A stretch of DNA of 64,000 nt from Pseudovirgaria hyperparasitica (Eukaryota). The position numbers and the translations under genes were made by a program. Shown in pieces: positions 27,901 through 52,033 of this stretch. Location: NCBI GenBank assembly GCA_010093815.1, contig ML996575.1. One strand, given 5' to 3'. The notes beneath the pieces were generated by a model that was not told where the DNA came from, ran no database searches, and saw nothing but the letters and a program-made list of their open reading frames with translations. The first letter of the stretch is position 1, and each line of letters starts with the position of its first letter.

Positions 27901-29555
27901 CTGTACTTGACAGCTCTACTCACTCTGTATTCCTTCACGTTACCGTCAATGCACACAGTAACTCTGAATATGGAACCATAATCAAAAGTAACAGTAACGG
28001 CACGTCCTATGTCCTGAGCGTTAATGAGGTCAATCGAAACGAAGAGGGCTACGTAGACTTTGAAAAAATGCAAGGCCTCGAAGGAGTGGCTATCATCAAC
28101 GTCGTCCAGAACAAAGAACAAGTCGACAACGGTGCCGGGAAAAAGAAGCGCACACTTATTACCCATAACGATGGCGCTGACTGGGCTCTTTTGTCTAATG
28201 TGAAGGACGCTAAGGGGGAGAAGAACCTTTGCAATGATAACGGATGTTCCCTTCACCTCCACGGATACACCGAGCGCTCTGATCCTCGAGCTACATTTTC
28301 GTCTGCATCCGCAGTCGGTCTCATGATGGGTGTGGGTAATGTGGGTACCGAGCTTAGCAGTCCGAGTGACGCCAATACCTTTCTGACCCAAGACGGAGGC
28401 GTTACATGGAATCAAGTTAAGTCGGGTCCTTATATGTGGGAATATGGAGACCAGGGATCGATCATTGTTCTCGTGAAGAAGAACGAAGCAACAGATCACG
28501 TTCTATACAGTACTGATGAGGGCGACTCCTGGACGGAATACCCCTTCACCAGTTCCGATTCTTGGAATATCGAGCTCATCACTACGGTACCTAGTGATAC
28601 GTCGATGAATTTTCTCTTGTGGGGTAAACAAGTCAAGGGTAAAAACCGTGGTAAGCTTGGTACGGTGAATCTTGACTTTTCCGGCCTCTTCGATCGTAAA
28701 TGTGAGCTTGATGACGACAATCCTCTGGCGGGCGACTACGAATTTTGGACCCCAAAGCATCCGTCTCAAGACACTGAATGCTTGTTTGGGCACATTGCCA
28801 AATACCATCGAAAGAAGCGTGGTGAACTGTGTTACAATGGTGAACGTCGATTCGACGATGTGCACGAACAAGAGAAGTGTGAATGTACTCGTCGCGACTG
28901 GGAATGGTAAGTCATAGTTTAGATGTCTCACCCAACAGAACTGATACATTTGAGTAGTGATTATAACTACGAACGCCAGAACGATGGTTCATGCCTACTT
29001 GTGGAAGGTTTGTCGCCATCTGATCCCAAGGACGTGTGTCAAGACAAGGATGTGGTTGAGTATCATACCGTCACCGGCTATCGTAAAGTGCCGATCTCGA
29101 CCTGTGAAGGTGGCCGGGATTTACGGGCAGAGACCCTACCGTGCCCAGGCCATGAAGAAGAGTACAACGAGAAGCATGGCACATCTGGCTTCGTTATCTT
29201 CCTCGCGATAGTTCTCCCAATTACAGCAGCCGCTGGTGTCGGGTACTGGGTATACCAGAATTGGGACGGCAAGTTTGGCCGCATCCGACTGGGCGACGGC
29301 TATAGTTCGTTCGACAGCAACAGTCCATGGATATCATGGCCCATCGCGGCCGTCTCCGGCCTCATTGCCGTTCTCGCTACGATCCCATTACTGGTCGGCA
29401 GTCTGTGGCGAAGTGCAAGCAGCAGATTCGGTGGCGGCCGTGGCTACGGAAGCCGGACGTACACGAGTAGAGCCTCGTTTGGCCGCGGCGACTATGCGAT
29501 CGTGGATCCGGACGAAGGTGAACTGCTTGGTGATGACAGTGACGAGGACGTCTAG
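24992..29555 (+). CDS. VPS10: Vacuolar sorting receptor Vps10/Pep1 (about 1469 aa), 4 exons
   Basis: Exons 24992-25468, 25526-25716, 25763-28906, 28958-29555. Signal peptide, two VPS10 propellers with BNR repeats (S.DGG.TW; GFVDFEK/GYVDFEK; YEFGDQGS/WEYGDQGS), Cys-rich 10CC regions (GWRKIPGNQCKGG, GYRKVPISTCEGG), one TM helix and an acidic tail. Confidence 0.97.
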
Positions 29556-30547
29556 TAGTCGGTGAATCTGGGTTTTTTTTGGGAAGCACAGGCATAGGAT
29601 GGGTAGAACACAAGGTTGAACCCAATTTCTGAGAGGGGAGGCTCGGTGCCTTCCCTTTCAAAGTGTAGTTTTAGTTCCTTTTTTGAGCGCTGCGCAATCT
29701 GCTTCTCGAATGTCTTTCGTGCCATGAAACTATGTGTGTGTGCGTGTGTGTCAGCTTGGTGCATGACTGCTGTACTGTTTGATCATTCACAATGTCTAGC
29801 TAATTAGCCTTGACATTGTCAAATGGTCTTCCCCCCCTTAGTGCACTGTTCTATCTACCATCATCTCGAGATCACATTCGCGAAACCTCTTATTGCACCG
29901 GTGTTAATACAATAAGCTAGCATCGCTGACTATTCCCCACAGTTATATAGATGGCTGTGCCATTCATTCATGTCACATTCTAGTCCCAACTCCATCCTAC
30001 GAAAACTTCATAAGACCATGTATACATACCAGATCATATATGAATCGTCACAGAGTAGTTCACTACCTACGCAAACACAGACATGAACACGCGCAAACAA
30101 CATCTGCACAGACTTTTGCTTGCTTGATGCAACCTCGCTCAATGAGGGTTCGGTCAATTGGCGATCTATGAGACACTGTACGATTACATTGGATCTGGTA
30201 CGAGGCATTGGAAAGGCGTTTACAAGCAGTTCTTATGGGTTGGATGGACTCTTCGGTGGTTGGGGACTGGGTGGAGATTGTAGGTTGGTAGCAGCGCTGT
30301 GATGATAGTGGTTCTGATATTGTGGGTTTGCAGGAGTCGTGAGTTTAGAGTTTGGTATGGAAGAGCTAGATGTATAAGGAGCTATTTCACCACTTTCATG
30401 TAAAAAAAAATAGAGATCTCTTGGCTATGCGGCTCAGTGAGGCCTAGAAAATTTGGGATATCTGTTAAAATCGTACACTCTTCAAATCTGCGTACACTCT
30501 TAAAAACTGCGCGACACATGCTACATCCATGAACCATCCTCTTACAA

Positions 30548-31431
30548 TTACACCTGTCTTACATCCTTCAGCTCTACAGCATGCATATCCAATCTTTCAG
30601 AGCTCATGCCCAAGGCCGTCTCTTTGTCCCTGGCGCTAAACTTGCCAGTTCTACAGAGTTTACTTTCAGTGACCCACACTCGGAGCCATATCAGGTACTT
30701 CACAATTATGAAGATGACGCATGCACCCACAAGTATTCCAATGATGTATCCTGCAGTGATGCCGCTGCCATGCTCTTGTATGTCAAGGAAATCGTAAACA
30801 TAGAACCCTTGCGTAGCGTGGGTCAAGTATGCGAGACCGAGATAGAGCGCGAGCAGGATGATGATTGGGATGAGGTGCCACCATGGAAGAGGGGACGTTC
30901 GCGGGATTATGATCTCAAGCAGCGCATAGACGGCGTTCAGGGCGTGTTGGGAGGTATTTGACCACGTTGCGAAAGGGGTCTCGAAGGAGCTGTATAAAAG
31001 GGTCCAGAAGACAACTATGGCCACTTTTTAGGAGACAGTCACATATGCGCTCACCATGCTGCAGACTTACTTGTAACGATCCACGGGTACACCGTAATGG
31101 TGCTGTACAGTACCTCGTGGAGTGTCTGTAAGACGACTCCCCAGTCTTTCAGCGCTTCCCTTCCCTTGAGCCAGTATGTGCCGGTATGTATCGCTGCGAA
31201 GAGCCCGTATCCCGCGATCCCCCAGTAGGTCAATACTGTAAAGTATGAGAAATTCCTGCCTGCTTTGCGGTCACCGTGCGTGCCGTCCCAGCCAAGAGTG
31301 AAAAAGATTGTGAACCAAGCATAGAGGGCGAACACTGCTCGAAATGCGAAAAGAACGAGAGGGGACAGTAACCACGAGGTCACCCATCGCGACGTAGGAT
31401 CGAAAGGGCGCGATGCAAGAGAGAGGCGCAT
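30548..31431 (-). CDS. FAR-17a/AIG1-like multi-pass membrane protein, 2 exons
   Basis: Exons 31431-31071 and 31014-30548. Motifs FSYFTVLTYWG, PWIVTIVFW, WSNTSQHALN, YLGLAYLTHATQGFYVYDFLD. The Thr and His pair matches the AIG1/ADTRP-like pattern. Confidence 0.75.
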
Positions 31432-32336
31432 TCTCAACGGACGGCGCAGAGATAACAGTTTGCTGGAGGAGGAAGTGTGTTATGCCATGTGGGAGTAGGT
31501 TTCAGTTGTTTGCTGCTGCGGGAATTTCTTTGAAAACCGGTTCAACGCCGGGGGCTCTATATTTGGGAAATTGGCCGCACATGCAATGATCGCTTGGGGC
31601 CCCGAACGTACCTAAACAGGAGATCTGGCCAGTACAGAGAGTCGTCACTCGTGAAGCGTTTGCGACGAGCCCGTATTGACGATTGACTATCATTTCTACA
31701 ATACACTAGGGCACGCTACGTGGATGGATCCGGATGCTGAAGCTTGGCTCGTTCCTGTCAGGCGTGTCCCGCTTTTTGGGCGCGAACGCCAGATCGCGTC
31801 GGGCCGAAAGGGACGATTCCCTTGACTTATTGCACTTTCTCTCGACGTCGAGCGTCCTCCGCCCTGCATATGACAATAGTAGATCAAACCCACCCTTACT
31901 CCACGCCGCTCATTATGTTTGTGCTATACGGTATCTGAGCATGGCAGAGCATGAAGCCGTTTTTGAAGGGTGGAACGAGCGAATCGTGCATACCGAGATC
32001 TAGGGATCGCAATTCCTTTCGTTGATCGAACCGAATGTGCGGAGTAGAAGGTGGTCCTATTAGCATGATAATTAGTCATGCAGCTGTTCTTCCTTGTTGA
32101 TTGTTGCCTAGAATAGAGATGGGCGGTAGACCTCAAGGATTGATAACTGACCGGCCGCACCGATCCATCGAGGGCGCTTTCAGCTTGCAGCCTTTAAGAG
32201 AGCCCTTCGTCAAGGCTCACACTTCAAATACCACTCATCAGAGACTCTCTTTAGTTTCCATCTTGTTGACCGCACTCTTCTGAGTCCACCGGTCAAACAA
32301 AACGCAACTGTTGCTGAGACTCTCGGCGTGCATGCC

Positions 32337-32867
32337 ATGCCTCCTTCACGCCAACCCACCAGCCGATCAGATGCGGGAAGATCGCTTCGAGAGAGACTCA
32401 CTCAGCCTTTGCAGAGCATCGCCTCCAAACAGCGTGCCCCCTCGCCACAAAGATACCCCTGGAAAATCGGCATTTACAATGGGGTGACCTGGCCAAAATT
32501 GAAGGCTCACCTCGAAACCTTGTTCCCCGGCACAGAGTTCAAGGAGAGAACGGTAATCGAGCGCGCTCTGGTGAAGGAGAGGCTATGGTGGCTAACGGTC
32601 AATCCTACAGAAGGGAGACTATTGGATAGTCAAAGTTCCAGCACCATCCACAACAGTGAGTGCACTTCCCTTGCATTGCCAACGTACAAAGATCTCGATT
32701 GACGTTTCCAGGATCGCAAAAACGAGATACTACAGCTGAGAGATGATAATCGCGCTAGAGAACCATCGCTTACGCCCGAGCCCGGAATGCATATCAAAGT
32801 TCCAGTCGAGGGAATGGCAAATGACCCATCTTCGGCCCCCGAGGGTGGGGCAGGTGGTGCGCCATAG
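32337..32867 (+). CDS. Small protein of unknown function (138 aa), 3 exons; first gene of the trio
   Basis: Exons 32337-32552, 32611-32655, 32712-32867, both introns phase 0 (GTAATC..CTAAC..CAG and GTGAGT..TTGAC..CAG). Core: YPWKIGIYNGVTWPKLKAHLETLFPGTEFKERTKGDYWIVKVPAPSTTDRKNEILQLRD. Confidence 0.7.
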
Positions 32868-33146
32868 GCTGAAAGCGCAGCTCAAGTGGAGTATGTCACA
32901 AGGATGATGCTGCGTAATCGTTCCTCCGAGCGAAGGGTGGCTAAATCATGGGTGCACCAAAAAGTCGGACATGTGTACAGCCACACACAACGCATTGTTG
33001 AAGCAAGACAACGTAAGGCTGACACTGTAAATTTGTTCAAAAGAATAACTACATCGCGATCGTTCATATCTCCTCTAGCATAACTTTCCTTAAGTAGTAA
33101 ATTCTATGCAAGCACAACAACCATTGGTCTTCACTATTTGTTCAAA

Positions 33147-35018
33147 ATGTTCTTGGTTGACCATCAGCTTGCGGAGTCGATCCGAGGAGCCCACAAGTAT
33201 CCACAGAACATCATTACAAGAACGTTAGATGCATGTGCCTGGACATTAACAAGCGCAACCACTTCACTAGACAAAGCGACACCTTCGTTGTTTGTAAAAC
33301 GCGAAGAAGAGGTAGACCTGACGTTCCGCGATATAGACCCTCAGGAAGGTATTTAGAACAATGTCCACTATGTCACAAGCACACAATCTGACTCGAATCC
33401 TCAGGCCTCAAAAAGACCAACATTCATCTGGAGGGCAAAGAATTGGAATGGCTCGGCGTACAGTCGAGAATGAATGAAGAGTGCCCACGCAAGCCTCCGT
33501 TTATATATGCTCAGAGGAGGGATCCGAAATGTCGTTTTATGTACGTCTCAAGAAACATGCGTGCGAATTACCAGCAAAGCACTAATCTTTAGCAGCTACA
33601 TATACGGTATTCACAGCAGAGCGGCTCTAAAGGTGTCCAGAAGCATGCTCACAAACGTTCTCTCGTATCATGAGGTCATGCCAGCGTACTTGGACTTTAT
33701 TTTAGCATTCGGATTGAAGTACGAACCAGATGATCTCAAATTCAGTGCCTTCATGGAGCAGACTACTTTATCAGCACCACGTGGACCTGTCACAACAGAG
33801 CTAGGCCGAAGCGGACGGCAGTTCCAGCTATGTTACAATCTACGGACCGCGACCAAGAAATCTGAGGAGAACGGCTTGGGTAATCATCAGGAATGGTCCA
33901 TCCAACCAGCTGCAATCCACCATCAGTTTGATGTAATCGAAGGCACTACCCTCTGGATAGTCACAAAAGGGGGTCGCGATTTATACCACCGTTATAAGGA
34001 TTTCTCTGCATCAAGCGTTCGGCCAAGTGGCTTGGCTTTCACATCACCAGAAGAGTGCCTGCGATCGAGCCTCTCAACACATCTAATGTTCTGTCGTTGG
34101 GCTACGGAGGGTTGGCGATGGTTCTTGAAGTGGCTTGAAATGACTGTTGAGGAAGAGGTAGGGCAAAGTACTCGCAGACATTATCACTCTGTTAATGTGA
34201 CGTTAGACTCAGCTCGCCGGCTATAGCCCATCGAAGAATTACAGATCCGAGCACCTTATGCGGTTGCATCGGCATTTAGACAAAGCCGCAGGAATCGTCA
34301 TTGCATTGGAGACGAATGTGGAGATCTTGACCTTACTTCGCGAATACTATTGTAAGCTGGTCAGCAGACATGATTATCCATCAGCCTTGAAAAATGCCTG
34401 CAGCGACGACTTGCATTGCTTCGATACCAAACTTGGTGTCATGGTGCATAATTCCAAGATGGAACTGTTCAGGGCAAAATCACTCGTGGAAATCGTTAAA
34501 GATCGAAAAGAATTGGTATGATTGACGATCTGGAAGCCACACTTGTCACACATACTAACGCACTCCAAGATAGTGCAACACTTGCAGACTCAGGCTTCTG
34601 AGAGAATAGAAGCTGTCAGCAATCGTATGGAACGGGAAGCTATTGCAGTCAGAATGTTGACAATTGTCTTTGGAGTATATCTACCGGGCAGTTTCGTATC
34701 GGTCAGTGTTACCACCATTACTATGCTTTCTCTGATGGTTCTAATGTGAATCAGGCCTTCTTCTCCACCGACGTTGTTCATTACTCCGCCAATGATAATG
34801 AGAAGGTGGTGTTCTCATCAATAGCACTGGACAGATGGCTTCAGCTGACAGTTCCTTTGACTGCGCTCACTTTGATATTCGTCTATTGGTCACACTCTTT
34901 CGCGAACAAGTCAGCGATGTTTAACAAGTTCATGCTCGCAAATGCTCGGGGTATAGCACGCTCGGTTGGCTCATTTGCTCTTCGAAAACGTGCCTCGACA
35001 GACTCAACGATGGTTTAA
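33147..35018 (+). CDS. Fungal CorA-like protein with two C-terminal TM helices (about 534 aa), 6 exons
   Basis: Exons 33147-33348, 33405-33540, 33596-34157, 34207-34515, 34570-34701, 34755-35018 total 1605 nt in frame. Motifs DPKCRFIYI, MLTNVLSYHEVMPAYLDFILAFG, FQLCYNLR, WSIQPAAIHHQFD, a long stalk helix, TM1 VRMLTIVFGVYLPGSFVSAFFSTD and TM2 WLQLTVPLTALTLIFVYW. Confidence 0.82.
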
Positions 35019-35957
35019 GGGATGTAGGAGACTAATATACAAATGTACATATATATTTACGATACCGCACCAAACATCAGGAGTTGTCTAAATGTGTTAA
35101 AAGAAATGAGTCGCCAGCACTTGCCGCCGCTATACAACTGTTTTGAGATACACATGCTTGTCTACGATTTGGAGCCATGCAAATGGTTCTAAGATGATTT
35201 GAGTCTCAGCGCGAGAAGATGTCGCAGTGAACATCAAGATGCTCGTCGGCAGTAATGCCTCATTCTAGCATTGCATCGATCGGGGCTTGCGGCATGTGGC
35301 GTACTAGCATAGCCTCAAGATCACACATGAAACCTTGTCAGCAGCACTTCCCAGCAAAGTGTCATTGTGGAGAGGCCATCTCTCGCACACCAATGACTGC
35401 GTGTGTCCACAGGCCAGGTTGTAGTAGATTCGACTTACTAGCCTCTCGTAAAAAAAGAATGCCAAGGGTACGAAGCAAGAGATGGAAGTCGGGGTGACGT
35501 GCATGTGAAGCTCGCCCGGTCAGAATCGTAGACGTGTTAGGGCCGGGCAGCGTGCTGTGATAAAAGGAAGGAGGAAAGAGCTGGGTGCTTTGCGAGCTCA
35601 CCGCTTACCATGCAAAATCCGAGGGTATGCTTGATTTATGGTAATTTACAATCTTATCAGTCTTCTACCACCTGCAAAGCTACTATGCAGATGCAGACTA
35701 AGCGGGGCTTCTCGCAGCCTTGTCTGCGTGGATGTACCCTCATCGTACCTCTGGAAAGGCAGCAGGATTTCCATATACCTCTTAGATCCTTCTGTCGTTC
35801 ACTTTTCATCCGTTTGAATCGGCGATTATCTAGCGTATCTCTTTCATGAACTCCATATTCACTCTTGAAGGCCCGTCTACGGGTTTAACCGTCCGATCGG
35901 CCCCACGAGGCTGAGCCTCGCTCAATTTGCAGCGGTTTCACTTTGACAAAGATCAAG

Positions 35958-38900
35958 ATGCAGTTCGCTACGGCACATACGCCCCATACATTTCCCAGCA
36001 TTGTCGATACGTTCAAGAGAAAGCTCGAAAGCTTGAGGACGAAGGCATACTGTGGTCGACAATATATACTCGTTGATCGGCTCCAAGACTGGCTTAACAC
36101 GAGAGAAGAATCTCAGGAGCATACCAATATCAGGAGACTGCTAAGTGTTGCCTTCTCAGATATATATCAAAAGGTGGATTCTCGCCAGCTATCGCAATCC
36201 TACATAGTCTTTGCTATTCTCATGGAGCACGACTATGGGCATCATATTGACAAATTCCTCGATGCCAATATAACGGACAGTCGCCTCAGTGAAGATCTGA
36301 GTATGGCTGAATTGCAGCGGAATCTTGGTGGCGAAGCGCCGCAAATTATCGACGCTTTTTACAATAGCAGATGGGCCTTCTGTCCGGCTCGTTTTGAGCT
36401 TGATTCGCATACAATAGTGAGGTCTCGCGATCAAATCATACCCTACTGCTCTCGCGAAAGAATTAATGAGGGCGGTACCGCAGATGTCTGGCAAGTGACC
36501 ATCAAAGAAGATATGCTGTCAAGCGATATGAAAGATCGGATGACTCAGTTCCGATTCGAATGTGCTGGGCATGGCATAGTAAGTGGAATCGAAGTAAGTG
36601 GTATTTCTCCGCTCATCGCCAACAGTGTTACCGGCTCGCCATCAAGGGCTACGCAGAGAAAGATTATGAAGTGTTTAATTGGGAAAGAGAAGCGTTCAAT
36701 GTACTGCGAGGTCAAGCAGGAATGGTCCAATGCTTCGGCTCATATGAGATCGATGAGATCAACCCTGAATATCGCAGAGGCCAGGACCTCCGCAACTTTG
36801 CTCTCATCCTCGAGTTCGGAGAACGCGATCTCATGAACTACCTCGAAGATACATCTCAAATTCCCCCTATCTTGCCGGAAGAGATATTTTCGTTCTGGAA
36901 TGAGTTGTTCAAGGTCTCCGATGCTCTCAGTCAGTTTCACCATACAAAGTACCGAAACGCTGATACTAGCACATACTTATCTGGGTATGTCTTACGATAG
37001 TGATAGAGAAAGGTATTGACATCCATCTACAGGTGGCATTCTGATGTCAAACCAGAAAACATCTTAAGAGTTAATGGTGAATTCAAGTTGGCTGACTTTG
37101 GATTCTCAAAGTTTAGGAAATTCGAAAAGAAAGAGGTAGTTCCTTCGGAGTATATTTATGGAGGCACATTTGCATACGGTACAGATTATTGGCCTAGAAA
37201 AGAACATGTTCTGATTGGACTGTAGGAGCACCTGAATGCGAAGCCATGAGACAAAATCGTGGCACCACTACCAACGTTACTCAGACCATTGACACGTGGT
37301 CTTTTGGCTGTGTCCTATCGGAAGCTGCGACATGGCTTGCTCTTGGCTACCAGGGACTAGAACAGTACCAAGAGTTCCGTATTGGCGTTGTACGTGACCT
37401 TCGCCGCCGACACGCACCAGAAGATAGGAGTAAACGGGGTATTCAGATCCCCAGATCGGACAGCTCGTTCCATGACGGCTATAGGGTTTTACCTCAGATC
37501 CGTCTCTGGCACGATTATGTTCGCAACAGCACCAGGCGTACTGATACCATCACAGACCGTGTCTTAACATTAGTAGAGGATCACCTGTTGTTGGAGGATC
37601 CTCACGCACGTTATTCCTCAAACCAGCTTTCGGATGCACTCAAGATTGCAGAGTGGGAGGCCAGACAGGATGTTCAAGCTCACTTCGCTGACCAAAGGTT
37701 GCGTCAAATTGCACCAGAGCTCCAGCAGCGGCTTGTGACTATTGAGCAGACGGCAGCTGCCCGCCAAGGTACTTCCAATAGCAACCTGACCGTCATGTCT
37801 AAAGATACCACTCCTCTTGAAAGCGAAAAGACCGCTAGAGACAAAGGTATCATTTTGGGGCCACTTCCTACCAGGAACTATCGAAAATCGCAGCGTGCGG
37901 GCAAGACAGAATGGATAGAGAAGAACCCACTGTCTAGGACTGCGCACAGGAATCCTGAAACGATGATGAATACAATACCTTTGGCCCATTTGACTGAAAG
38001 TCCCAACACCTATGATGTGGACATAGATGAGCCTGGTCCATCAGATCGATGGGAAAGTCGTAATGTGCCACTACCGGCACCACTAAAAATCAGGACTAAG
38101 GAAACCTATGCGCACAAGGAGAATGGAGGTACATACGGTCGTGGCCTTACGAGTCCCCAGACTTTGGAGCTCTCTCCGCATCCTCATATGTCAAGTGTTC
38201 CTTCCATGGTGACACACCCAGACTATCCTGGGTTACACAATACACATGAGATACGTTCTAACCCACATCCGAACTTTGCCACTCCTCAGGTGCTTATCAA
38301 TATACTAAATACTTCCGCATCTAGGCCTGAGGATACAAGGGACCCGGGGGGGCAAATTCACCCAGCCACCCCGCCCAACTCACCAGAGACCAAGATCAAG
38401 AAATACGAGCAGAAGGGATTTGACCCGATGGATTCACTGATCTCATCCAGGAGTGAGCCGCAAGAAGGCCCGTCAGATACTGCAATATTGTTGAACGAGG
38501 AAAAAATACTATTACAGTCCCCGGTGCCAATAGAAGAGGAACCGTCTAACGTCAGCATTCAAATAGATGAATATGCCACCGTTACCGACGTTAGAAACAA
38601 ACACCCAGAACTGGACATCTTCATCGTTCGCCGCGAGCTTGAACGTAAGAATCCAGGACTTATTCGATCCTGGTTGATAAATTCTCCGCGGAACAAGAGG
38701 CTAAGCTACTTTGTGTCGAATAGGGACATTGTAAGTAGAAGATCTGTCGCGTGACTCGCCAAGGATTCTGACTCCTATGTCGCAGGTATTTGTGGTTGAC
38801 AACGCGCCGACCATGCGACCATGGTGGGCTCTCGTATCTTTTGTAGTGGAGACTATGGCGATGAATCTCACTGGCCTGGATAAAGATGGCTTGGATCTTC

Positions 38901-39582
38901 TTTTCACTGGAACGGACAAATTTAGACTCAAGGGCAAGAAGGCAGACGCACCAAGCAAATTCCTAAAGAATATTCGCGAAGCCACCCCAAATGATCGCTC
39001 TATGAACACGGACATGGCCGCATCGCTCGGCACTATCTTTGACGAGTATATCAGAACACCCCAAGAAAAGGGTATGACGCTTCTTGTGTTCACTGACGGC
39101 TTGTGGACCGGAGGTGCCGAAGATGATGCCGTCGAGAAAGCCTTGGTGAAGTTTATCACACGCACAAAGGATTACAAGATGGATCGTCAAATGAAGCGCC
39201 GCTTCAGTATAGAGTTCATATACTTTGGACACGACCAAAAAGCGATAGATCGCCTGCGGGCCCTGGACGATGAGATCAAGACAAAACACGAACTCCCGTA
39301 AGTCTTCCATCCTAGTCATCATGTAGCCAGCCGCCCGACTGACAAATGTTCAGCGATATCGTCGACCACGAACCCTGGACCGGAGATGTCGATAAAATGA
39401 TCACCGGTAGCTTCCTTGAATCGAAAGATGTTCAGAAACCCGATGCCGGACTTTCGCCTCCCGGACTTTCGAGAGTGGACAGTAACACCCCTTCAATGAA
39501 TTCCCTCTCCTCTCCGACACAGCCCAGCAAGCGATCTTCCTTTTTCGGAAATAGGAAGGGTAAAAGTGCTGAAACGAGGTGA
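35958..39582 (+). CDS. Ser/Thr protein kinase fused to a C-terminal vWA domain (about 1123 aa), 6 exons
   Basis: Exons 35958-36578, 36626-36984, 37033-37178, 37226-38730, 38786-39297, 39354-39582 total 3372 nt in frame. Kinase motifs EGGTADV, LAIK, WERE, WHSDVKPENIL, LADFG, YGAPE, DTWSFGCV. vWA motifs VFVVDNAPTM, DKDGLDL.F, LLVFTDGLW, SIEFIYFG..LRALDD. The start codon is uncertain. Confidence 0.88.
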
Positions 39583-40145
39583 AGTCTCACCACCCATAGG
39601 CAAACACATTTTGGCGTAGCGTTTTATTAGAATATGGATCCTGGTTGATACCCGCATGTCTGCATACTAGAAAGACTGCACTAAGGAGTTCGGATCTGAT
39701 TGTGGATCTTGCTTTCGATGCGTGAAAAAATGTTGGCCTGAGTGACTTTAGTCTCGAAAGTGGGGTGTAGTTGAGGTGGTCATATTGCTGTGTGTATGTA
39801 TTGTCTTTCTACGCAGTTGTAGTGGTTTTCTGTGATATAATAATAGTATTTAATGTGTAGATCAGTGAATGAAAGAATGTACCTATGTGTGTCATAGTGT
39901 GCCTGTGGTAAGGAGATATCTGCATATGACATCATTTATGCTCCGCGACACTGTATGCCAGGTTCGTAAGATGCAGCGTAGGGTCACACATGAAGAGTTT
40001 CGATGTAGTAGAGAGAATGAAGTTGAAAGACTGATTAGCTGTTAATGTCCAGGAATTTGAGCAAGCTTAAAGCTTGCTGAGATCTTCCAGTCAAACTCAT
40101 CACCATCATAAGACCCGGAGCTTGCTTGGACTACAGCATCTTTTA

Positions 40146-40201
40146 TGAAAGTCTTCTACTTCTTCTTTTTTCTTTTTCTTCTTCTTCTTCTCTTTTTCTT
40201 C

Positions 40202-40232
<31 letters not shown>
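40146..40232. repeat. Polypyrimidine/(CT)n/(CTT)n tract
   Basis: About 80 nt of almost pure C/T, including (CT)n. Confidence 0.85.
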
Positions 40233-40689
40233 CTAGGAGGAAGTTTGGAATGTGTACTATTGGATATATACTTGTGGGAGCTGTGTGTCACAGAGTACGT
40301 ATCCAGACTAAGGAAGAAAACACACATAGGAAAAACCATGGCTTTTGTGTGAAAACGTCGTATCGTATCTATATAAGACAAAAATAGAACATGGACGTAG
40401 CCAAGCAGACCGTAGCCTGAGTGTGGTATACAAAAAGACAAAAGAAACGAAAACCGAATGGCACACGATGCCGTCGTCAGGAAAGAAAGGTATATGCCGC
40501 CCCTTCCCCTTTTGCCCCAAGTCAAACCAATCGAAATCCATCCAAAAACACCAAACATCAGCGCCCAAAGCCAGCGTACAACGTATAATATAATACACCA
40601 ATCAACGATACAAACCTCTCATAATTCATGATCATGACGCACACCACTCTCCCAACCCAATCATACACCCACCACCAACATTTCCCATC

Positions 40690-42416
40690 TTACACCCTGT
40701 CCCCAAAATACCCCTTCTCCAACACCACCGGCCCAGGCGACGTCCCCACAGGCGTCGAATACCGCGAACTCCCCTCCGACAACCGCACCCCGTCCAACCG
40801 CACGACCACCACCCCTTCCTTCTCACTCCCGTCATCCCCTTCTGGCCCTACTACATCCCACCCTTGATCCTGCTCCTCCTGCTCCTGCTCACTCCTCAGC
40901 GCCGGATGCGAACGCATGTCATCGCCCGCGTGTCTACCAAGACCGGCATTCATCTCCACATCCCCTTCGCGCTCCGCATACCCGAGTCCGGTCCCGGCCC
41001 CGGTCCCATCCCCCACCCTCACCGTCCACCGCCCCGTAAGTTGCGAGAAGAACTCACATGTGCGGAACGCGTTTCGGAAGCCGCCGTGGACGCGCACGGG
41101 CGGGATCATGGGTGGGCCGGAAGCGGGGCCGAGGGATGTGATGCGATCATTATCGTCATCATCGTCATTGTTGTTGTTATGGTGGTGGTTGTAGTGGTTG
41201 TTGTTTGATTTGTCGGCCGAGGGCGCGGTGGCAGCGGCGACGATGGTGATGATGCGGGATCTGAAGGAGGCGTAGGCGCGCGTGAGGAGGGAGTTGCGCA
41301 GGAAGGTTTTGATGTAGGGGGCGCAGGCGACGGCGATGGCGAGGTGGTTTTCGATGGTGGAGCAGAGCATTAACTGGCCGTATTGGACTGTTGGGGTGGG
41401 AGAGTTAGTATGGGGGTAAAAGAGGTACGGGGAGACATACAGGCCATGTCGCCAGTGGATTTTATTTCGTACATGATCCAGACGCGCAGCGCGGAGGCGA
41501 TGAGGACGCTATTGTAGGAAATCTAAGTTAGTATGGGACTACTATGCAAGCATCCAGGGAAGAATAGGGCAACTCACACAAGCCCCAGCCCAAACACGAA
41601 GTACAACCCAACCTTACTCGCCCTAGAAACCTGGAGATTCCATGTAAACACCACCGGCATCGCATACAGCACTGTATCAATGCCCATCATCAGGAACCCA
41701 TTCGAGATCGAAAAGTCCATAAATCTGATATTCGAACATGTGCCAGGCACGGTGGGGTCGAAGATGCGGGCCATGGGCACGCACTGGGCGAGTACGACGA
41801 TGATGGAGGAGGCGCCGAAGCCGACGGAGACAAAGGTCATGAAGTGGATGAAGTAGTGTGCGGGTGTGCTCATGGTGAGGTCGCGGTAGAATTGCAGGAG
41901 GGAGAGCTTGACGAGCATGTTGCAGGAGAGATAGAAGATGTTTGTGACGAGGACGGCCTGTTTGGGTATGTTAGTGGAAATATGGTATGCGCGGGGAGAG
42001 GGTGGAGGAGTACTGACCTGGCGCATGCGGATACCATTTAGGAATTCTAGATCGCTTTCGTGGGTACCGAGTCCGAATGATGTGCCTGAGACGTCGATAT
42101 CAGTGGTGAATTAGAAGATGACAAAAGTGATCTTACTGATTATGAGGCCAAGAGACATTGCAATTCCAAAGACCTTCAACAGTTTATTAGCTATTGCAAC
42201 AGATCACGTAGTTGTCGCCCATACAGTTGCCGCGAGAATAAACCCTGAAGCAGTCAGCGAAGTGGACTATCGAAGCTGGTCTATTATCATACAATCATGT
42301 TGCTTATAAGTCCCACTCAAGATTTTCCGTTGGAGTAACCTGACCGTCACAGCGCCAAATGACAGGACAGACATGGCGACACTAACGCCAATGACAGCAT
42401 TCTGCCTGGGCAACAT
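40690..42416 (-). CDS. PTH11-like (fungal rhodopsin-domain) 7-TM receptor without CFEM, multi-exon
   Basis: ATG at 42416 (MLPRQNAVIGVSVAMSVLSFGAVTVRL..HDWFILAA). Motifs FGLGTH, LVKLSLLQFYRDL, LAQCVPMARIFDP..PGTC, DTVLYAMPV..WNLQ..K..L..VFGLG and CSTIENHLAIAVACAP. Several short introns. Confidence 0.85.
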
Positions 42417-43884
42417 GGCTCTGGTGTATTGTGGATGTCAAGATACAAGAAGTCTATAACGACAATGGCACAAGGGCACAACGAAGCCCAGTCCTATATG
42501 ACTGCGGATTGGGGATATATGGCATTCGACGAAAACCTGGGGACGGTAGATGAGACTTGGACACTGAGCAATGACCATTCGTCGCCCTGATATATGGACG
42601 AGCCATCGGAGCATTGTTTTGACAACTGCAAAAATCAGGGCAATTCATGTAGAGTCCGCAGCGTTTACAGGAAAAAGAACAGTGGGGCTGATACTGCACA
42701 CTGCAAGCACGGAGTCCGGAGCAGGCATGTCTGGGTGGTCGGCGAGGTTGTTAGTATGCAGTAGAGTCTGTATAAAGGTAGGTCGAGCACCCAATGGAAT
42801 AACATAAGCATAGTCCACTCCATCAGTGAGTAATCACTGCATATCATGATCATAATGAAGAATTTATGGCGCGAGTCAACCCAAATCCACGACCCAAAGT
42901 ACAACCTGACAGTCACAGAAAAGGTAAACTAACAGCGGGACAGAGGCAGGCAAAGGCATATCAACATGTATCGAGAAGAAAACAAAAGACTTGAAGTGGC
43001 GATGATTAGAATAAGATAAATGTTTATTTTTACACCACGAACCGCTCTTCCCGCGGCGCGCGCAGTCCATTCGAGTTACAACAGTACACTTACACTATCA
43101 CTTGAGCTCGTGGCAAATGTGCGACCACAATGATACCTCAACCCGCATTTTACATGCATTGGCCTGCATCTACGGAGAATGGATTGTGATAGCGCGATTG
43201 GTTGAGGTTTACTAGCGTTCCGGGGAAGCGATTCCCGGTCCTGCGGATCAAGCCGTGCTTGCCAAGATATCTAGTCGAGTCGACATGAGAGTCCGGTAGC
43301 GCGGTAGATCCCATTGGTGTCAGGTAAGGTAGCGATCTGTTGTGTCTATCGATTATTGAGTATCGATACGAAGTTCCAGGATAGAATTTGCGGACATGGC
43401 CTTGACAAGCAATATGAAAGGCTGTTTGGTGCTCATCTATCCGCGCGATATCAGCAATCGGCTTGAGAAGAAGGTCCGTCTTAGCCTTCAACATTGGCAT
43501 GACCATGATGAATGGCCAGGGCTCAGCTGAGAGGTTCATGCAAGGTACGATCATCAGTGAGGCTGCATTGCCGCGTTGAGCCCTGACCAGCGCATTCTTT
43601 GCATTGCGTACACTGCAGGGCATTCCTTGCTCCCCACGCGATCCTCAATGGGGCAAACCGATCTGTGCCATCCCACCCACAGATCTCGGCTGTGGTGGTG
43701 GTGGTCGTCGTCGTGCATGGTGAATTATTCCACCGGACTTCGCCATTGGTCCCACTCGTCTAGCGATTCAATATTTTTTCTGGCAAGCCGACCAATCTTA
43801 GAAGGCCAATTAGATGCCTTCGTCGCTGCTTAAGACGATTCGAAGCGTCGATGCCGGGCGATGCATATTAGCCAGGGGCGTGGA

Positions 43885-45215
43885 TCATCCATTCCTGCGT
43901 TTGCATTGCGCAGCGACTACACTGATATCGTCAAGTTTGCCTGACCAGCTCGATCAGTCCCAAGTCTTGATCTCTGCGACAAATGATGAAACTCACCTCC
44001 TTCAATAGACAGACCTTCCTCAACAGCCTTCTCCATGTACGGACTCTCAGCAAATGGATCTTCGGCAATCTTCCTGGCCTCTTTGACCAATTCTTCTGCA
44101 ACGTAATGCATGCCTTGCGCGTGGCTCTCTTCGCCAGGGTCCTTTCCTCTCTCTTTCGCGACCTCGCCATTGTTCCACTTGCGCAGGCTTTCCAGCACGA
44201 AGTCGACAATCTCATGTTCCCAGAGGTTGTCCACTACGCCGTCGGACATGGCAATGACAACATCATCTTCTTCAAGCTCCATGCGATTCATGACCGCAAT
44301 CTCAGTGGGTGTGTCTGGGCTATTCGTGCCGAGTTGACGCGGGCAATCGAACCAGTGCCACTGCTCTTTCGTCTTGAACAACGTGTTTCCATCCTTTGGC
44401 CTGATTACCAGAACCTGCGAGTCCCCAAGCTGCGTCACATATAATATAGGCTTTGAAGGATCGTCCTTGTCCGCGCCCAGTAACGCACTACAAGCGGTAG
44501 TCGTGCCTTGCCATTCATTCGTAGCCTTCTTTGTATTCTCATACGCCTCCTGCAGGTATCGCACCGGGTTCGGCTCTGCGTCTCTCCCATACTGATCTTT
44601 CTCTGCCTCCAGCGCCCAGAAGTGAAGTATCAGGCGGGCCCATAGTCTGGAAGAGCAAAACTTGTTAGTTGGTAATCCCGTGCAACGTACGACCTTTTTG
44701 GGGCTTCGCCAGCCGCTGTGCCTCACTCACGCTGCATGCCCCTTTTCTCGGTGCGCCCAAGCCCCGACGCCATCGTTTGCACAGATGAAATTATCAGACA
44801 CTAGCACTGCGTCGTCTCCGTTTGTGATACCGCGTATCATCTCGCCATCGTAGTATGAGCGCCGGTCTCGGCTGCGGTGGTGCGTGCTGAGCGGGTCCGA
44901 AAAGCTGCCGCTGGGGTAGGATAGAAAGGGCGGAGGAAAAGGTCGAGACGGGCGCTTTGCAAAGAGTGCGTACCCGGCTTCGAAGTAGAAGGGAGCCTTT
45001 GACTTCAGAGCTTCCTCAGAAGGTGCCGGAGTAGTGGTGCCACCTGTAAGCCTCCGGTCCGAGTTGGACTGCTTCTCGCTGCTATAACATCGCGCAGATA
45101 GCCTTGCAGGTAGTCTGATGCGGGAGGACAAGGTCGATAGGCAACGGCGCGTCACGTTTGAAGTCTGCAAGAAAGCGCCGGGCTGCGAAGGTGCTGTTGA
45201 TCGAAATATGTACAT
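43885..45215 (-). CDS. PTC7: PTC7-type PP2C (PPM) phosphatase, probably mitochondrial, 3 exons
   Basis: Exons 45215-44731, 44646-43997, 43940-43885. Motifs NGDDA, ANDGVGAW, GTTT, QLGDS, EQWHWFDCPRQLGTNS, SDGVVDNLW, SPY, GGKLDDISVV. R/S-rich N-terminus resembles a presequence. Confidence 0.88.
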
Positions 45216-45664
45216 CGAGGCGATAAGTGTCGATAGTGTTGATGACAGGCTTGCCTGTCGCGAAAACTGCGCAAGAAAAGAGCTACAAGACAGAAGCGCG
45301 ACCCATCTGGGCGCATTTATCAAGAAAATCCAAGCAGCAGAGGACCAAAGGTGAAGATTGTTGAGAGCATTCACGAGTATTGAGGCTCTGGCCGGAATCT
45401 AAGACGTCACGTGAGCGGCATTGTGACGGCAGCTAACCAGAAGTGTGCATAATAAGTATATTTCTGCTGGTCCCGTCCAATCCCGTAATCAGCGATTTAT
45501 TGATGCCAGAACGCAAGCGTCTCTTTCGGTATTGTACGCGTTGAAGCGTGCTGATACAAGCATCCGACCGTACATTATTATGTACGGCCAATTTACAAAA
45601 TCCCCGGCGCCATAGATGCATGCGAAGAACGATGACGGCATGAAAACAGATCCACCTTCTTCAC

Positions 45665-48201: not shown

Positions 48202-51091
48202 CTAGAGACTGGTAAAGACAAGCTTGGGATTTTCGCCGACGACCAAAGTTTTGATCTTTGGTAAGAGCTCTAGTATCCTAAATGGCTTTGCTATCGTATC
48301 ATCTGCCCCAGCCTCCCTCGCGCGTGCAACTTGTTCGCCTCTCGCATTGGCGCTGACTACGATGATTGGCACATGTCTTTTGATCTCGCCTGTTCGCTGA
48401 TACTCGCGAATCTTGCGTGTACAGGTTAAGCCATCCATCACCGGCATCTCTACGTCCATCAGGATTACTGTGAGACTGAGGGGTGGCTCCGATTGCGCTG
48501 CCGAATCCCAGATTTCGGTACGACGAATATATTCCAAGGCTTCGGCACCATGATTGCTGATGTGGACTTTACAGCCTGCCTTGCGCAGCTGTTGCGAGAG
48601 TACTTTTTGCTGTTCAGAACTGTCAGCGTGTGTGGATTATGCTATGCAGACTTACATTGACTATATTGTCTTCAACAAGTAATACCGCGTAACTATCCTT
48701 GACAGGCTCCACTTTGATGTCTGTGATATTGGGCGGAAGACGTGATTGACTAAGTGTACGACTCCTAGTTCTCAGTATAGCGGGTCTCTCGGGCGGAGGC
48801 GCTGTCCGAGTTGCGATAAAGAATGCAAATGTCGTACCAACGCCTGGCTCGGATCGGATCCCTATGGCTCCGCCTTGTAGTTCGGCGAGCTTCTTGGAGA
48901 TGAAAAGACCCAAGCCACTACCACCGTAAGTAATATGCGTTTTTGGCGTAGCTTGTGCGAATTTGTTAAACAGTATGCTTTGCTCTGCTAGTGATAGCCC
49001 GCAACCAGTGTCAGAGCATTCCATCCGAACAAACACTCTCCTCCCGGAGCCCCAGTCCTCTCCGGTGAGGAAATCGCCTACCGTGTGAGTTATGGGAACA
49101 TACGGAAAGCCATCGCCAGCTGGAGATGAAAATTTACTCGCGGAAGCGCTCAATCTGACATGGATCTTTCGTGTAGGCCTGTTGCGTGTAAATTTGATTG
49201 CATTCGTTAGAAGGTTAATAAGAATCTGCAGAACCCGAGACGGATCTATCATCACCCAGTCGGCTTCCAGCTCGTGAATGGATGGATCCTTGTCGGTTGT
49301 CAATTCGATACCGTTGTTCTTGCATTCAACTTCAAACATGTTCATGGCATCTCTCACAATGGTTGCTGGTTTTGAACGAACTGGAGTAATCGCAAGAAGA
49401 TTCGAGTCCATCTTGGACAAGGTTAAGACGTCATCAATCACGCGTTTCTGATGGAGCGAGCACGCTGTGATGGTGTTGAGTGAATCCAGGCATAGCTTTA
49501 TCTCGCTATCAATTTGTTCGCGCTCGGTACCTGTCATCGATCGAGACACCAGTGAAAGCATGCTCTTCAAAGTATCGATAGTAGAGTCTGCACACTGAAG
49601 GACGGCCGAAAGTGGGTTCCGCATCTCGTCTGATGCTCAAGTCAGTCTTTTCAGTGCCTATGCGACGCTTGAAAACGTACGTGAGGTCATGTCAATAAAA
49701 GCTTCGTGTTTTCGCTTCTCCTCCAGTGCTTCTTCGACTCGGCTTTTCAGTATATCTTCAGCCCACTTGAACCGAGAGATATCGGTCATAGTGCCGAAGA
49801 TTGACATGATGTTGCCGTCATTGTCCAGCTCTGGAAAAGCTTGACTTTCTCCCCAAACTTGGCGCGGAACACTGTCGCCAAGATCCCATGTTCGATTAAA
49901 TCGTACTTGCACACGGGTCATGACCTTCTCACTTTCAAGTGTCTCCCACTGCTTTCTGAACAGGGGCAGGTCTTCCTCAAATACTGCTGCTCGCCAATTG
50001 ATGTTCTGTACGTCATCCCCAAGAAGGTGCTGGTGCCCAGTAAACTCGTAGGCAAAGTTGTTGCAATACATCAATTGTCTTGTAGAGTCCAGAATATAAA
50101 TACCCATTGGTGCCAGACTTGCGAAGCGCGTGAATCGGTGTTCACTTTTCCGCAGGCGCTCGAGAGCTTCAGCCCTTTTGACAGCCTCGTCCTGCACACG
50201 CTTCTGTGCATTAATGTCAACGGTATTTCCAGCCACACTTACCAGATTTCCCATCTCATCCATGATAGGGACACAGGCGGACAGCACCCAAGTCACATCA
50301 TCGACTCCTGGATCATCCTCACTCGGAGGGCGATAGTTGATACCCTTCCATCTCATCTCGAACGTAATGCTATGGCCTTGAACCAATTTGTTCCATTGTG
50401 CAATAACCAAATCTCTGTCTGGGGGATAGACGAGATCCATAAACGAGTAATCAGTGTGGAGGTCTTCAAGCTTTGGATGTAGGCTAAGACGATACCAGGA
50501 GTCCTAGAAGTATGTCAGACTGGGATTAGCTGAGACGCTGGTTCAGCTCACGTTCGCACGAATCAGAGTACCCTCAGGGGAGTATTCAAAAGTCCCAACA
50601 TCACTCATCTCCATCATCGTGTAAAGGCTGGCTAGTCGTTGGTCATAACGTTTTATGTCTTGCAATCTGTGCTTAGCATCTTCGACCGAAAGACTATCGG
50701 GCCCTACGCCAACTGCCAGCCCAAATTCTATCTTTTTGTGAGATTGGGGCACCTGTCTCAGAGCACGTATGCATCTCCAACGCCCGCGGATATTGAAAGC
50801 GCCCCAAGTCGCGTCTGCGAAATCATACTCTTTTCTCCAGAGCGCGACTGTTTGACACCAGGCACGAAATCTGTGACTCGCCTCTTCATCCTTGTTTATT
50901 GTATCTGCTATCTTGTCCTGTCGGAATGCGGTATTGCCAGATACGATCCTGAAAGGGACTATTGCAGTAAGGTCAATTGGCACGAAGAAAGTTGGTCTAG
51001 GGTCTGCGTCAAGGAAGTCGTGCAGAGAAGGTAGCGCGTCTTGTTCCAAAACGTGATCCGTGATTCCTATAGATGTCGAGTCTGCGACCAT
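48202..51091 (-). CDS. Hybrid sensor histidine kinase (PAS/PAC repeats-HisKA-HATPase-receiver), multi-exon
   Basis: Spliced H-box FIDMTS(H)EMRNPLSA, N-box QILINLLTNAIKF, DTGCG, YGGSGLGLFIS, GVGTTF. Receiver motifs LLVEDN, ILMDVEMPVMDG, SANAR, KPF. Upstream PAS-like segments (DLVYPPDR, FEMRW). Confidence 0.93.
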
Positions 51092-52033
51092 TTGCTTCCC
51101 AGGTTTGCTTTGAATTTGGTATAAGGCGCGAGTTCGACACTAAATGCAGAAAATCCGAACAAGGATAACTCCATCAATGACGAGCGGGTAGAAATAACCT
51201 AGTTAGGGCAGGATATGCTTCGAGGAAGAGTGTTTTGGAGCGAGTAAGGACTGTAAGGTATCTGTAGCATTGCCATACTACATCGCAGCGAAAGAGTGAG
51301 GAATTTGAGTGCAGGCTACTACCTACATGTAATCTATCGTACGCTCCTGCCCCTGTTGTTCATGTAACGAAGCTACCATATGTTCTGTATAAAGCACGTC
51401 CACGGATCAAGAGTCGATAAATGGATAGGCTTCATGATTGATTCGAAGTATTCAATTCTTTGAAGTCCGATTTATGAAGCCGCCCGGTGTGTTAATATGC
51501 CGGTTCGGCACATAAGCGTAGACAGGACAAGTTCACCTACTTTTCCCACGCGTTCATACGTATATGTATTCATCTCATAAGTCAGTGATGCAAGTATGAG
51601 CACGTCGAATGGTGAACTCCGTTCCCTCGATCCTTGTGTCTCGTTAGGTATATGCAGTGGCGCTCCAGTGATATCCTGACTGTCATGACCAGGCACATTT
51701 CCGTGGTCTTCAGTGCCATGTTCGACATACAATCGTTGAGACAACACATGTACTGGGTGGATGGAAATGTATGGAGCAACAATAAAAGAACAGACTCAGG
51801 TAGAACCAAGGTCAAGCCAGGCTCTAGCCGCTAATGACCTAGTGCAACTGAGCTAGAGGTGGCTTGGCTTGACCTTGGGTCCCGATTTTCGAAAGACAAC
51901 ACTATTCTTCGATTATTGTGCTCACTTGAGTATTCGCACGTTCGGATAAATACATTTCCATCAGATGGCCACAGCGAAGACTGCTGTCGTATCGTGCATT
52001 CCTTAGAGGCACACGCTGCTCTCAAGGTCCCAG

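Follow-up and report, generated by a model that had tools for sequence, protein, structure and literature searches.

A conserved three-gene cassette of filamentous ascomycetes encoding a small protein, a CorA-fold membrane protein and a kinase with a vWA-like domain

The window analyzed here is a stretch of 64,000 nucleotides (nt) from Pseudovirgaria hyperparasitica, a Dothideomycete of the order Acrospermales. Positions 32337–39582 contain three genes, termed g1, g2 and g3, which are co-oriented on the plus strand, have GT-AG introns and give open frames after exon joining (Table 1). The g1-g2 spacer is 279 base pairs (bp) and the g2-g3 spacer is 939 bp. g1 encodes a small protein, g2 a membrane protein with a CorA-type fold, and g3 a protein that has a Ser/Thr kinase followed by a vWA-like domain. 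The three genes recur in the same order and on the same strand in most of the related loci.

Splicing of the three genes was assessed with contigs from two public runs (X1 and X2), which represent one sample from one study with the library type unrecorded. Of the sampled words of the stretch, 80% are present in these runs. All 12 predicted introns (two in g1, five in g3 and the remainder in g2) are bounded by GT..AG and are absent from the contigs, i.e., the intron-free contigs are cDNA-like. The contigs place g2 intron 3 (49 nt) at positions 34158–34206, with an acceptor 6 nt upstream of that in the first model. The corrected g2 protein is identical to the deposited protein P0100, and g1 is identical to P0102, whose accession neighbors that of P0100. 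The deposited proteins of at least 878 residues yielded no model of g3. The g3 gene is covered by a contig of its own from position 35450 on, so that its 5' leader is 500 nt or longer. A sequence-only reading of the window had described three intact, intron-containing genes on one strand at these spacings, and that description proves to be exact.

Table 1. Features of the g1-g2-g3 locus and of the surrounding window (aa, amino acids; ORF, open reading frame)
Feature	Position	Strand	Details
g1	32337-32867	+	3 exons: 32337-32552, 32611-32655, 32712-32867; 138 aa
g1 basic N-terminal motif	32382-32417	+	aa 16-27, S-L-R-E-R-L-T-Q-P-L-Q-S
g1 conserved core	32454-32747	+	aa 40-99, across all three exons
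g2	33147-35018	+	6 exons: 33147-33348, 33405-33540, 33596-34157, 34207-34515, 34570-34701, 34755-35018; 534 aa
g2 most conserved cytoplasmic loop	33801-33842	+	aa 182-195, L-G-R-S-G-R-Q-F-Q-L-C-Y-N-L
g2 first hydrophobic helix and pore-motif position	34639-34772	+	aa 427-453, including intron 34702-34754
g2 second hydrophobic helix	34839-34901	+	aa 476-496; model helices
g3	35958-39582	+	6 exons: 35958-36578, 36626-36984, 37033-37178, 37226-38730, 38786-39297, 39354-39582; 1123 aa
g3 SAM-like helical bundle	36189-36386	+	aa 78-143
g3 kinase domain	36462-37641	+	aa 169-514; span includes introns
g3 linker basic motif	37876-37959	+	aa 593-620; conserved motif in the variable linker
g3 vWA-like domain	38786-39414	+	aa 878-1068, including intron 39298-39353
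PP2C phosphatase gene	43150-45398	-	PF00481, E 1.8e-8; 3.6 kb downstream of g3, past the PTH11-type gene
Histidine kinase gene	48623-51139	-	PAS / HisKA / HATPase_c
Kinase-domain ORF	55595-56266	+	PF00069, E 9.5e-16; just upstream of the HET-domain ORF
HET-domain ORF	57458-59332	+	PF06985, E 4.2e-26; the kinase/HET pair is 16-20 kb downstream of the cassette
Long ORF	9611-13612	+	1333 aa; no Pfam family at E <=0.001
Long ORF	52007-54502	+	831 aa; no Pfam family at E <=0.001

When metagenome contigs were scanned with the g2 alignment, 79 loci were recovered, which form 60 clusters at 97% nucleotide identity. Every locus is thus anchored on g2, and these contigs carry no taxon. A hidden Markov model of g1, built from nine sequences, was run on the six frames of all loci, and every match is positioned upstream of g2. 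A g1-like ORF is present in 28 of the 30 clusters that have at least 1500 bp of upstream sequence; it is on the same strand in 27 and lies 0.5–1.3 kb from g2. Five g1-like matches have E values of 0.001–0.013 and were accepted for position only. Downstream of g2, tblastn with pieces of g3 detects, on the strand of g2, a kinase or N-terminal domain of the g3 type in 20 of the 24 clusters with at least 2000 bp of sequence, at a distance of 0.7–2.2 kb. The vWA domain is present as well in 14 of the 17 clusters whose downstream sequence is 6 kb or longer. The flanks, on the other hand, vary between loci. There are 143 flanking ORFs of at least 160 aa in 23 loci, and they encode a chaperonin, MFS transporters, peptidases, SRP72, ClpB and others; local flank synteny is kept in one lineage only, and no fourth recurrent gene is found among these ORFs. 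As the flank content is unrelated, the three genes represent a conserved unit. This strongly supports the earlier proposal of a three-gene module, in that adjacency, order and strand are conserved amid varying flanks, and the neighborhood conservation that was suggested as a check is seen in most of the related loci.

Linkage is also found in named genomes, where adjacency was taken from the order of locus tags or accessions. Fonsecaea erecta has three consecutive tags, AYL99_01928 (kinase), AYL99_01929 (CorA-like) and AYL99_01930 (small protein). Genes for g2 and g3 are consecutive in Capronia epimyces, Cladophialophora immunda, Pyrenula sp., Peltula sp., Alternaria panax, Pyrenochaeta sp., Venturia effusa and V. 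inaequalis, and merged CorA+kinase gene models are found in Colletotrichum fructicola, C. orbiculare and Cudoniella acicularis. The g2-g3 linkage is therefore present in 12 named species in total, by tags or accessions in nine and by merged models in three. The merged models (1439, 1191 and 1542 aa) were considered as true CorA-kinase fusions and rejected; they are probably annotation merges, as the junction in P0007 skips the second membrane helix, and other Colletotrichum assemblies have separate CorA-like and kinase models. With the window included, the linkage covers Dothideomycetes, Eurotiomycetes, Lichinomycetes, Sordariomycetes and Leotiomycetes, and single-gene matches add Geoglossomycetes and Lecanoromycetes. 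The named matches listed all belong to leotiomyceta. A chance association of neighbors is refuted by these counts, i.e., 28 of 30 and 20 of 24 clusters together with the tag adjacency and merged models, and its probability is practically nil. For 18 loci, the g2 tree and the g3 tree have 7 of 15 splits in common, with a Robinson-Foulds distance of 16 compared with a mean of 29.7 for shuffled labels; none of 10,000 shuffles is as low, and the Mantel r is 0.68. Congruent trees had been put forward as a second check on the module, and the congruence found fits co-inheritance of the two genes. Because the same order and direction are present in many distant fungi, the three genes almost certainly cooperate in a signaling unit.

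Linkage of this type could also stem from shared transcription without interplay of the products, whereby a bicistronic g1-g2 RNA, a promoter or a chromatin domain is common to genes of unrelated processes. The g1-g2 spacer is short, and one contig of 2603 letters carries both g1 splice joints, the whole spacer and all of g2 to approximately 295 nt past the g2 stop codon (its span, from about the g1 start codon, is inferred from the record length). This is a hint of a bicistronic g1-g2 RNA, although a contig over two genes is no proof of a single transcript. A common transcript is usually in itself a sign of common function. In addition, local regulation alone hardly accounts for a same-strand g3 about 1 kb further on in most clusters, given that the flanks are unrelated. 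Linkage without interplay is thus considered highly improbable.

The g1 protein belongs to a family of small proteins. An exhaustive HMMER search with the first exon recovered both copies from P. hyperparasitica as well as seven small proteins of fungi, one of which is AYL99_01930 of F. erecta. Two bacterial matches (P0103 and P0111) are repeat proteins and were judged spurious, and a further match, a 228-aa protein with the motif behind an N-terminal extension, was set aside. Pfam gives no match to g1, either with single exons or with P0102 and P0105. In alignments, the basic N-terminal motif has the family consensus R-R-x-T-x-P-F and may be a phospho-acceptor or docking site. The family core reads Y-x-x-Y-x-x-L-x-W-E-K-L-x-x-F-L. 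Exon 2 bears a W-x-F/V-x-V-P motif, which also follows exon 1 in related loci: exon 1 ends at the same position, and W-x-F-E-V-P-E-x-L-T of exon 2 is next in 17 of 27 loci outside the window. In one further locus outside the window g1 is intronless. Structural neighbors of the core in the Atlas are small alpha/beta domains, all of which are under the bar. Database models of the family (P0104, P0106, P0108, P0109 and P0112) mostly read through intron 1 and finish with residues foreign to the family. This systematic mis-annotation may explain the orphan-like appearance of g1; the sequence-only reading had termed g1 an orphan, and that label is replaced by a conserved small-protein family positioned upstream of g2.

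Assignment of g2 to the CorA type comes from its fold. The Pfam CorA family (PF01544) has no match to P0100 at E values up to 0.1, nor to single exons, and the orthologues P0019 and P0011 score 26.4 and 14.1 bits against a cut-off of 27. A 'CorA-like transporter domain' (PF26616) is precomputed on all 83 matches listed and on P0010, whose identity to g2 is 97%; the PF26616.1 call is the database's own annotation on relatives, the model being absent from the Pfam copy that was scanned. The AlphaFold2 model of g2, made with 34 sequences, has a mean predicted local distance difference test score (pLDDT) of 83.3. Foldseek aligns it to Thermotoga maritima CorA over about 450 columns (E 5.6e-11, probability 1.00), and against many CorA chains the template modeling score by target is 0.49–0.58 at 8–11% identity. 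The model, Foldseek and hydropathy together place an alpha/beta domain at the N-terminus, followed by a long stalk helix and, at the C-terminus, two membrane helices. The second of these stands out clearly by hydropathy in P0019 and P0011 and falls slightly short of the threshold in P0100. The CorA-like assignment made at first sight therefore stands by fold and is not upheld by Pfam on g2 itself.

The first hydrophobic helix of g2 has Y-L-P-G-S-F-V-S-A-F-F-S-T-D where CorA channels have Y-G-M-N. In CorA channels the GMN site closes the first membrane helix, and the S-T-D of g2 was placed on that basis. Residues F450, S451, T452 and D453 are conserved in at least 90% of the 34 g2 sequences. 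We know of no characterized filter of the S-T-D kind. A CorA fold in which GMN is replaced by S-T-D implies that g2 is not a canonical Mg2+ channel. The most conserved cytoplasmic loop has R184, G186 and Q190 invariant in the 34 sequences, and one may speculate that it has a ligand- or phospho-binding role. Identity to g2 over the whole length is 36–43% across 33 aligned relatives and reaches 58% between classes in the exon 3 part. This degree of conservation is not the picture of a hypervariable or fast-evolving recognition gene.

The properties of g2 could also be those of a protein of divalent-cation homeostasis, i.e., a CorA/ZntB-type transporter of ions other than Mg2+ that is tuned to supply by g3 and g1, with clustering as a means of co-regulation. 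Such a transporter would have the full CorA fold seen in g2, from the cytoplasmic domain through the stalk to both membrane helices, and members of the CorA superfamily with altered filters carry other cations. All three genes are under purifying selection, g1 intron positions are conserved, and a cation-efflux gene is near one locus (L013). However, a fixed three-gene order at this phylogenetic depth is unusual for housekeeping transporters, and the S-T-D motif does not resemble any known characterized filter. A weak negative points the same way: Saccharomycotina, Basidiomycota and the common model molds are not represented among the named matches listed. Yeast and Neurospora are not known to have the cassette. 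The wide but patchy distribution, together with the tight clustering, suggests an accessory stress or defense switch and not a housekeeping transporter, and a role in homeostasis appears quite unlikely.

From N- to C-terminus, the g3 protein carries a SAM-like domain, the Ser/Thr kinase, approximately 360 aa of linker and a vWA-like domain, the first and last of these being of protein-interaction type; its orthologues are 980–1360 aa. The kinase has the beta-3 Lys in Y-R-L-A-I-K, as well as H-S-D-V-K-P-E-N, D-F-G and Y-G-A-P-E, and the catalytic residues are invariant in 7 orthologues. Exon 3 alone matches Pfam Pkinase (PF00069) with E 1.6e-7 and 31.4 bits against a cut-off of 31.7, and 9 of the 9 full-length g3 relatives scanned are above the cut-off. 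The nearest solved kinase is TTK/Mps1 (E 3.6e-11), and the kinase-vWA family is at present auto-named 'MPS1-like'. The motif in the linker has R576, K579, R582, A592, R594 and L598 (P0001 numbering) invariant in seven orthologues; it may be a docking, pseudosubstrate or localization signal. The structure model of exon 1 has a pLDDT of 86.3. With VIA-align, the helical bundle at aa 78–143 has a SAM domain (8ucy_A) as its best match, with Z 5.5 and a root-mean-square deviation of 2.1 A over 63 residues; SAM domains make up most of the 50 rows shown, with Z below the level for a firm assignment. Other SAM signals are weak (Foldseek best match a SAM domain, E 0.48; Pfam SAM_2, E 0.096), and a profile of the N-terminal domain gave nothing meaningful against the PDB. 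The SAM-like character of the modeled bundle is thus a lead.

Evidence for the vWA domain is made up of several weak, concordant signals. The domain has a pattern like that of a metal ion-dependent adhesion site (MIDAS), D-N-A-P-T ... T-D-M ... T-D-G. In 16 aligned sequences the Asp is invariant, S or T is present at +4 in 16 of 16, and T-D-G is kept. The g3 exon matches Pfam vWA-TerF-like (PF10138) with E 0.0041 and 17.7 bits against a cut-off of 29.4. One each of the 16 aligned domains matches VWA (E 5.9e-7), VWA_2, Copine and vWA-TerF-like, and the vWA matches of full-length g3 orthologues are all under the Pfam cut-off. The vWA profile weakly detects the vWA domain of anthrax toxin receptor 1 in the PDB (E 0.0073) and integrin I domains (E ~0.8–1); the exon alone detects nothing there by sequence. 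The named neighbors in the Atlas are all vWA families, with a score of 0.91. In the kinase-vWA fusion that had been read from the window, the kinase is hence secure with all catalytic motifs, and the vWA part stands on these weak, concordant signals.

It is highly probable that g1, g2 and g3 act together. The reading we prefer, which we hold to be about as probable as not, is that they form a cassette of filamentous ascomycetes in which a CorA-type channel is controlled by a kinase and has a dedicated small partner. The combination of a kinase, a CorA-type membrane protein and a small adaptor or substrate had been proposed for the window, and it is compatible with the anatomy of the three proteins. 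In this cassette g2 would form an oligomeric pore with a selectivity unlike that of Mg2+ channels, and g1 may be a regulatory subunit on the cytoplasmic funnel of g2. Binding of g1 to g2 is suggested by their linkage, which is the tightest in the cassette and remains in loci without g3. The g3 protein could dock via its vWA domain, its SAM-like domain or both, and would phosphorylate the Thr motif of g1 or the cytoplasmic domain of g2, which would switch the pore between closed and open states. The output would then be a conditional ion flux. Gating of a channel by the kinase as the mechanism is a tentative proposal, with a little less than an even chance of being correct.

Several observations weigh against the kinase-controlled channel. 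Contacts between the proteins, phosphorylation of g1 or g2 and conduction by g2 are inferences that go beyond anatomy and linkage. The GMN filter is missing and the Pfam CorA cut-off is not reached, so g2 may not be a channel. Assignments of the vWA and SAM domains are weak, and the first Ser of the MIDAS is replaced by G, A, D or P. A kinase that has ankyrin repeats and no vWA match is found in P0022 (C. acicularis) and in the metagenome proteins P0206 and P0207; ankyrin repeats in place of the vWA domain in some relatives imply that the interaction domain after the kinase may be exchangeable. Four of the 24 clusters have no downstream g3. In L027 the kinase is on the opposite side and on the opposite strand, with no vWA; L040 and L057 have g1-g2 alone; L063, the most distant g2 relative, has neither neighbor. 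The kinase is therefore not obligatory in cis. In the named genomes it was the order of tags or accessions and not the DNA that was read. Congruence of the g2 and g3 trees is expected of any linked pair and is silent on function. A prediction of the g1-g2 complex gave a score of 0.00, with alignments unused and the partner fold uncertain, and is no evidence either way.

The literature searched, which did not cover subscription journals, has no description of this gene combination, but parts of the arrangement resemble known systems. The channels of the MIT superfamily (PF01544), i.e., CorA, Mrs2, Alr1 and ZntB, have the whole-chain fold in common with g2. In contrast to these, g2 has S-T-D for GMN, only 8–11% identity, the PF26616 N-terminal domain, and fixed g1 and kinase neighbors. 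The animal channel-kinases TRPM6 and TRPM7 combine a TRP channel and an alpha-kinase in one polypeptide. They resemble the cassette in that a cation channel is functionally tied to its own kinase; the cassette differs in having a CorA fold and a conventional kinase, which are encoded by separate, neighboring genes. Fungal two-gene death modules, e.g., gasdermin with a protease or an NLR with an amyloid effector, are inherited as a pair. These also place a membrane effector beside its activator, whereas the cassette shares no domain with them, would have a kinase as the activator, includes a third small gene and is not linked to any known death phenotype.

TerY-P is a bacterial triad of a vWA protein, a Ser/Thr kinase and a PP2C phosphatase. 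It couples vWA to a Ser/Thr kinase as g3 does, and the vWA domains of g3 and of one orthologue have their best, weak match to a TerF-type model. In g3, however, the vWA and kinase are fused and of eukaryotic type, the cassette adds a CorA-type partner and g1, and PADLOC gives no TerY-P match. The PP2C gene of the window (Table 1) was considered as a third, TerY-P-like member and rejected, with no PP2C among the 143 flank ORFs of 23 loci. The parallel to TerY-P is only a loose analogy because no PP2C is conserved. A second prokaryotic parallel is a CorA-family membrane effector of type III CRISPR that is reported to be activated by S-adenosylmethionine-AMP (SAM-AMP) (PMC12255297). A divergent CorA protein acts there as a signal-activated effector beside a signal-making enzyme, and the cassette resembles it in logic only: the CRISPR effector is a prokaryotic, nucleotide-gated protein linked to Cas10, whereas the cassette is eukaryotic and the neighbor is a protein kinase. 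With PADLOC, g1, g2 with an orthologue, and the vWA exon have no match, and the g3 kinase matches generic kinase models only. A pattern scan of 185,579 prokaryote genomes with the g2 alignment gave 33 stretches and a pattern scan with the vWA exon gave 105, none of which was confirmed by tblastn; these are weak negatives. The kinship to TerY-P and CRISPR-CorA that had been drawn from the window is accordingly not one of sequence membership.

Additional copies are present in the same species. A second intact g1-g2 pair (P0010 and P0101) is on a 25-kb contig, and its g2 is 97% identical to that of the window. Two truncated g2 copies (P0099) are also present, and the contigs involved are small, up to 73.5 kb. 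The extra copies represent either a segmental duplication or an assembly artefact. Variant letters in X2 at positions 34005–34391 fit expression of the second g2 copy. As with the patchy distribution, g1-g2 copies on small contigs point to an accessory stress or defense role.

In Alternaria, g2 is present as two classes that are 88% identical (P0056 versus P0072 and cluster members). The two proteins differ at 70 of 603 aa, and the differences are spread out with a peak of 17 at residues 520–560, which is probably around the two C-terminal membrane helices. A. alternata, A. tenuissima and A. arborescens were sampled, and isolates labeled A. alternata and A. tenuissima occur in both classes. 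The classes may be old alleles or paralogues. Within-species divergence of g2 in Bipolaris maydis and V. inaequalis was rejected as a comparable case, as the differences are blockwise and are gene-model artefacts.

Such classes and copies bear on another explanation, in which the cassette is a module of non-self recognition or regulated death. Here the kinase-vWA protein would be the trigger, the CorA-like pore the lethal effector and g1 an inhibitor or adaptor, perhaps as an incompatibility locus. The adjacent trigger and membrane effector resemble the layout of fungal and bacterial death modules. Also in agreement are the patchy distribution among the named matches listed, the near-identical g1-g2 copies with two truncated, the two Alternaria classes, and a C-terminal interaction domain of the kinase that varies, with vWA in most and ankyrin repeats in a few. 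In Morchella importuna, a gene with a CorA-like domain (mimpvic32) was mapped by bulk-segregant analysis as a candidate for vegetative incompatibility, without functional validation in that study (PMC8940278). Its product is a fungal CorA-like-domain protein as g2 is, but it is 765–773 aa, comes from Pezizomycetes and is encoded beside another candidate, mimpvic33, that has no recognized domain (PMC8940278).

On the opposite side, the three proteins have no HET, NLR, HeLo, gasdermin, TIR or patatin domain, and g1, g2 and the vWA exon lack PADLOC matches. The g2 protein is well conserved, gene order is stable across classes, unlike that of fast-turnover recognition genes, and the apparent divergence in B. 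maydis and V. inaequalis stems from gene models. HET or NACHT genes are beside the cassette in 4 of 23 loci (L036, L039, L008 and L015), which is not clearly above the background of these abundant families. The Morchella gene may belong to a subfamily other than that of g2. Non-self recognition or regulated death thus appears doubtful, and we attach the same low expectation to cell death or immunity as the output of the cassette. A more specific version is unlikely. In it, the cassette would be an ancient immune-type death switch found in seven classes, in which a cue received by the vWA domain or ankyrin repeats leads the SAM-like kinase to oligomerize and to phosphorylate the R-R-x-T of g1; g1 would then leave the g2 pore, with depolarization as the result. 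Such a switch would be an analogue of the bacterial signal-activated membrane effectors assembled from eukaryote-type parts, the Alternaria allele classes would represent allorecognition, and g1 and g2 might be bicistronic so that inhibitor and pore are made together.

Gene order decays fast in filamentous ascomycetes (mesosynteny). Apart from metabolic clusters and a small number of modules for incompatibility or death, conserved multi-gene cassettes are, to our knowledge, rare in these fungi. A non-metabolic unit whose order and strand are kept over five classes is therefore strong guilt-by-association evidence for an undescribed pathway. The parts and the logic are of known kinds; the arrangement is undescribed and deeply conserved. 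It provides a context for the PF26616 CorA-like fungal family without the Mg2+ filter, for the 'MPS1-like' kinase-vWA family and for the mis-annotated small g1 family. Should the output of the cassette turn out to be cell death or allorecognition, fungal immunity would gain an effector and trigger of a new class; should it turn out to be ion control, the cassette would be a new case of a channel with a dedicated kinase.

The genes that flank the cassette in the window had been read as FAR-17a/AIG1-like and PTH11-like. The PTH11-type gene is confirmed (PF20684, E 1.3e-24), and the FAR-17a/AIG1 match is weak and under the cut-off (PF04750, E 0.0034). Mobility of the cassette was considered and rejected, as there are no direct or inverted repeats of 25 bp or more within positions 29000–43000. 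Best Pfam matches of the two long ORFs are a C2H2 finger (E 0.007) and Clr5 (E 0.16).

The contigs of X1 and X2 display two further features. Splice-like joints of the form CT..AC, which correspond to GT..AG on the minus strand, are present at 35312/35438 and 36915/36977 in X2 contigs only, and point to antisense RNAs that are spliced, over the g2-g3 spacer and within exon 2 of g3. Where the contigs depart from the window, the change is A>G at 4 of 11 places in X1 and at 7 of 18 in X2 (positions 32517, 32828, 32852, 32893 and others). These A>G differences could be strain differences, copy differences or RNA editing.

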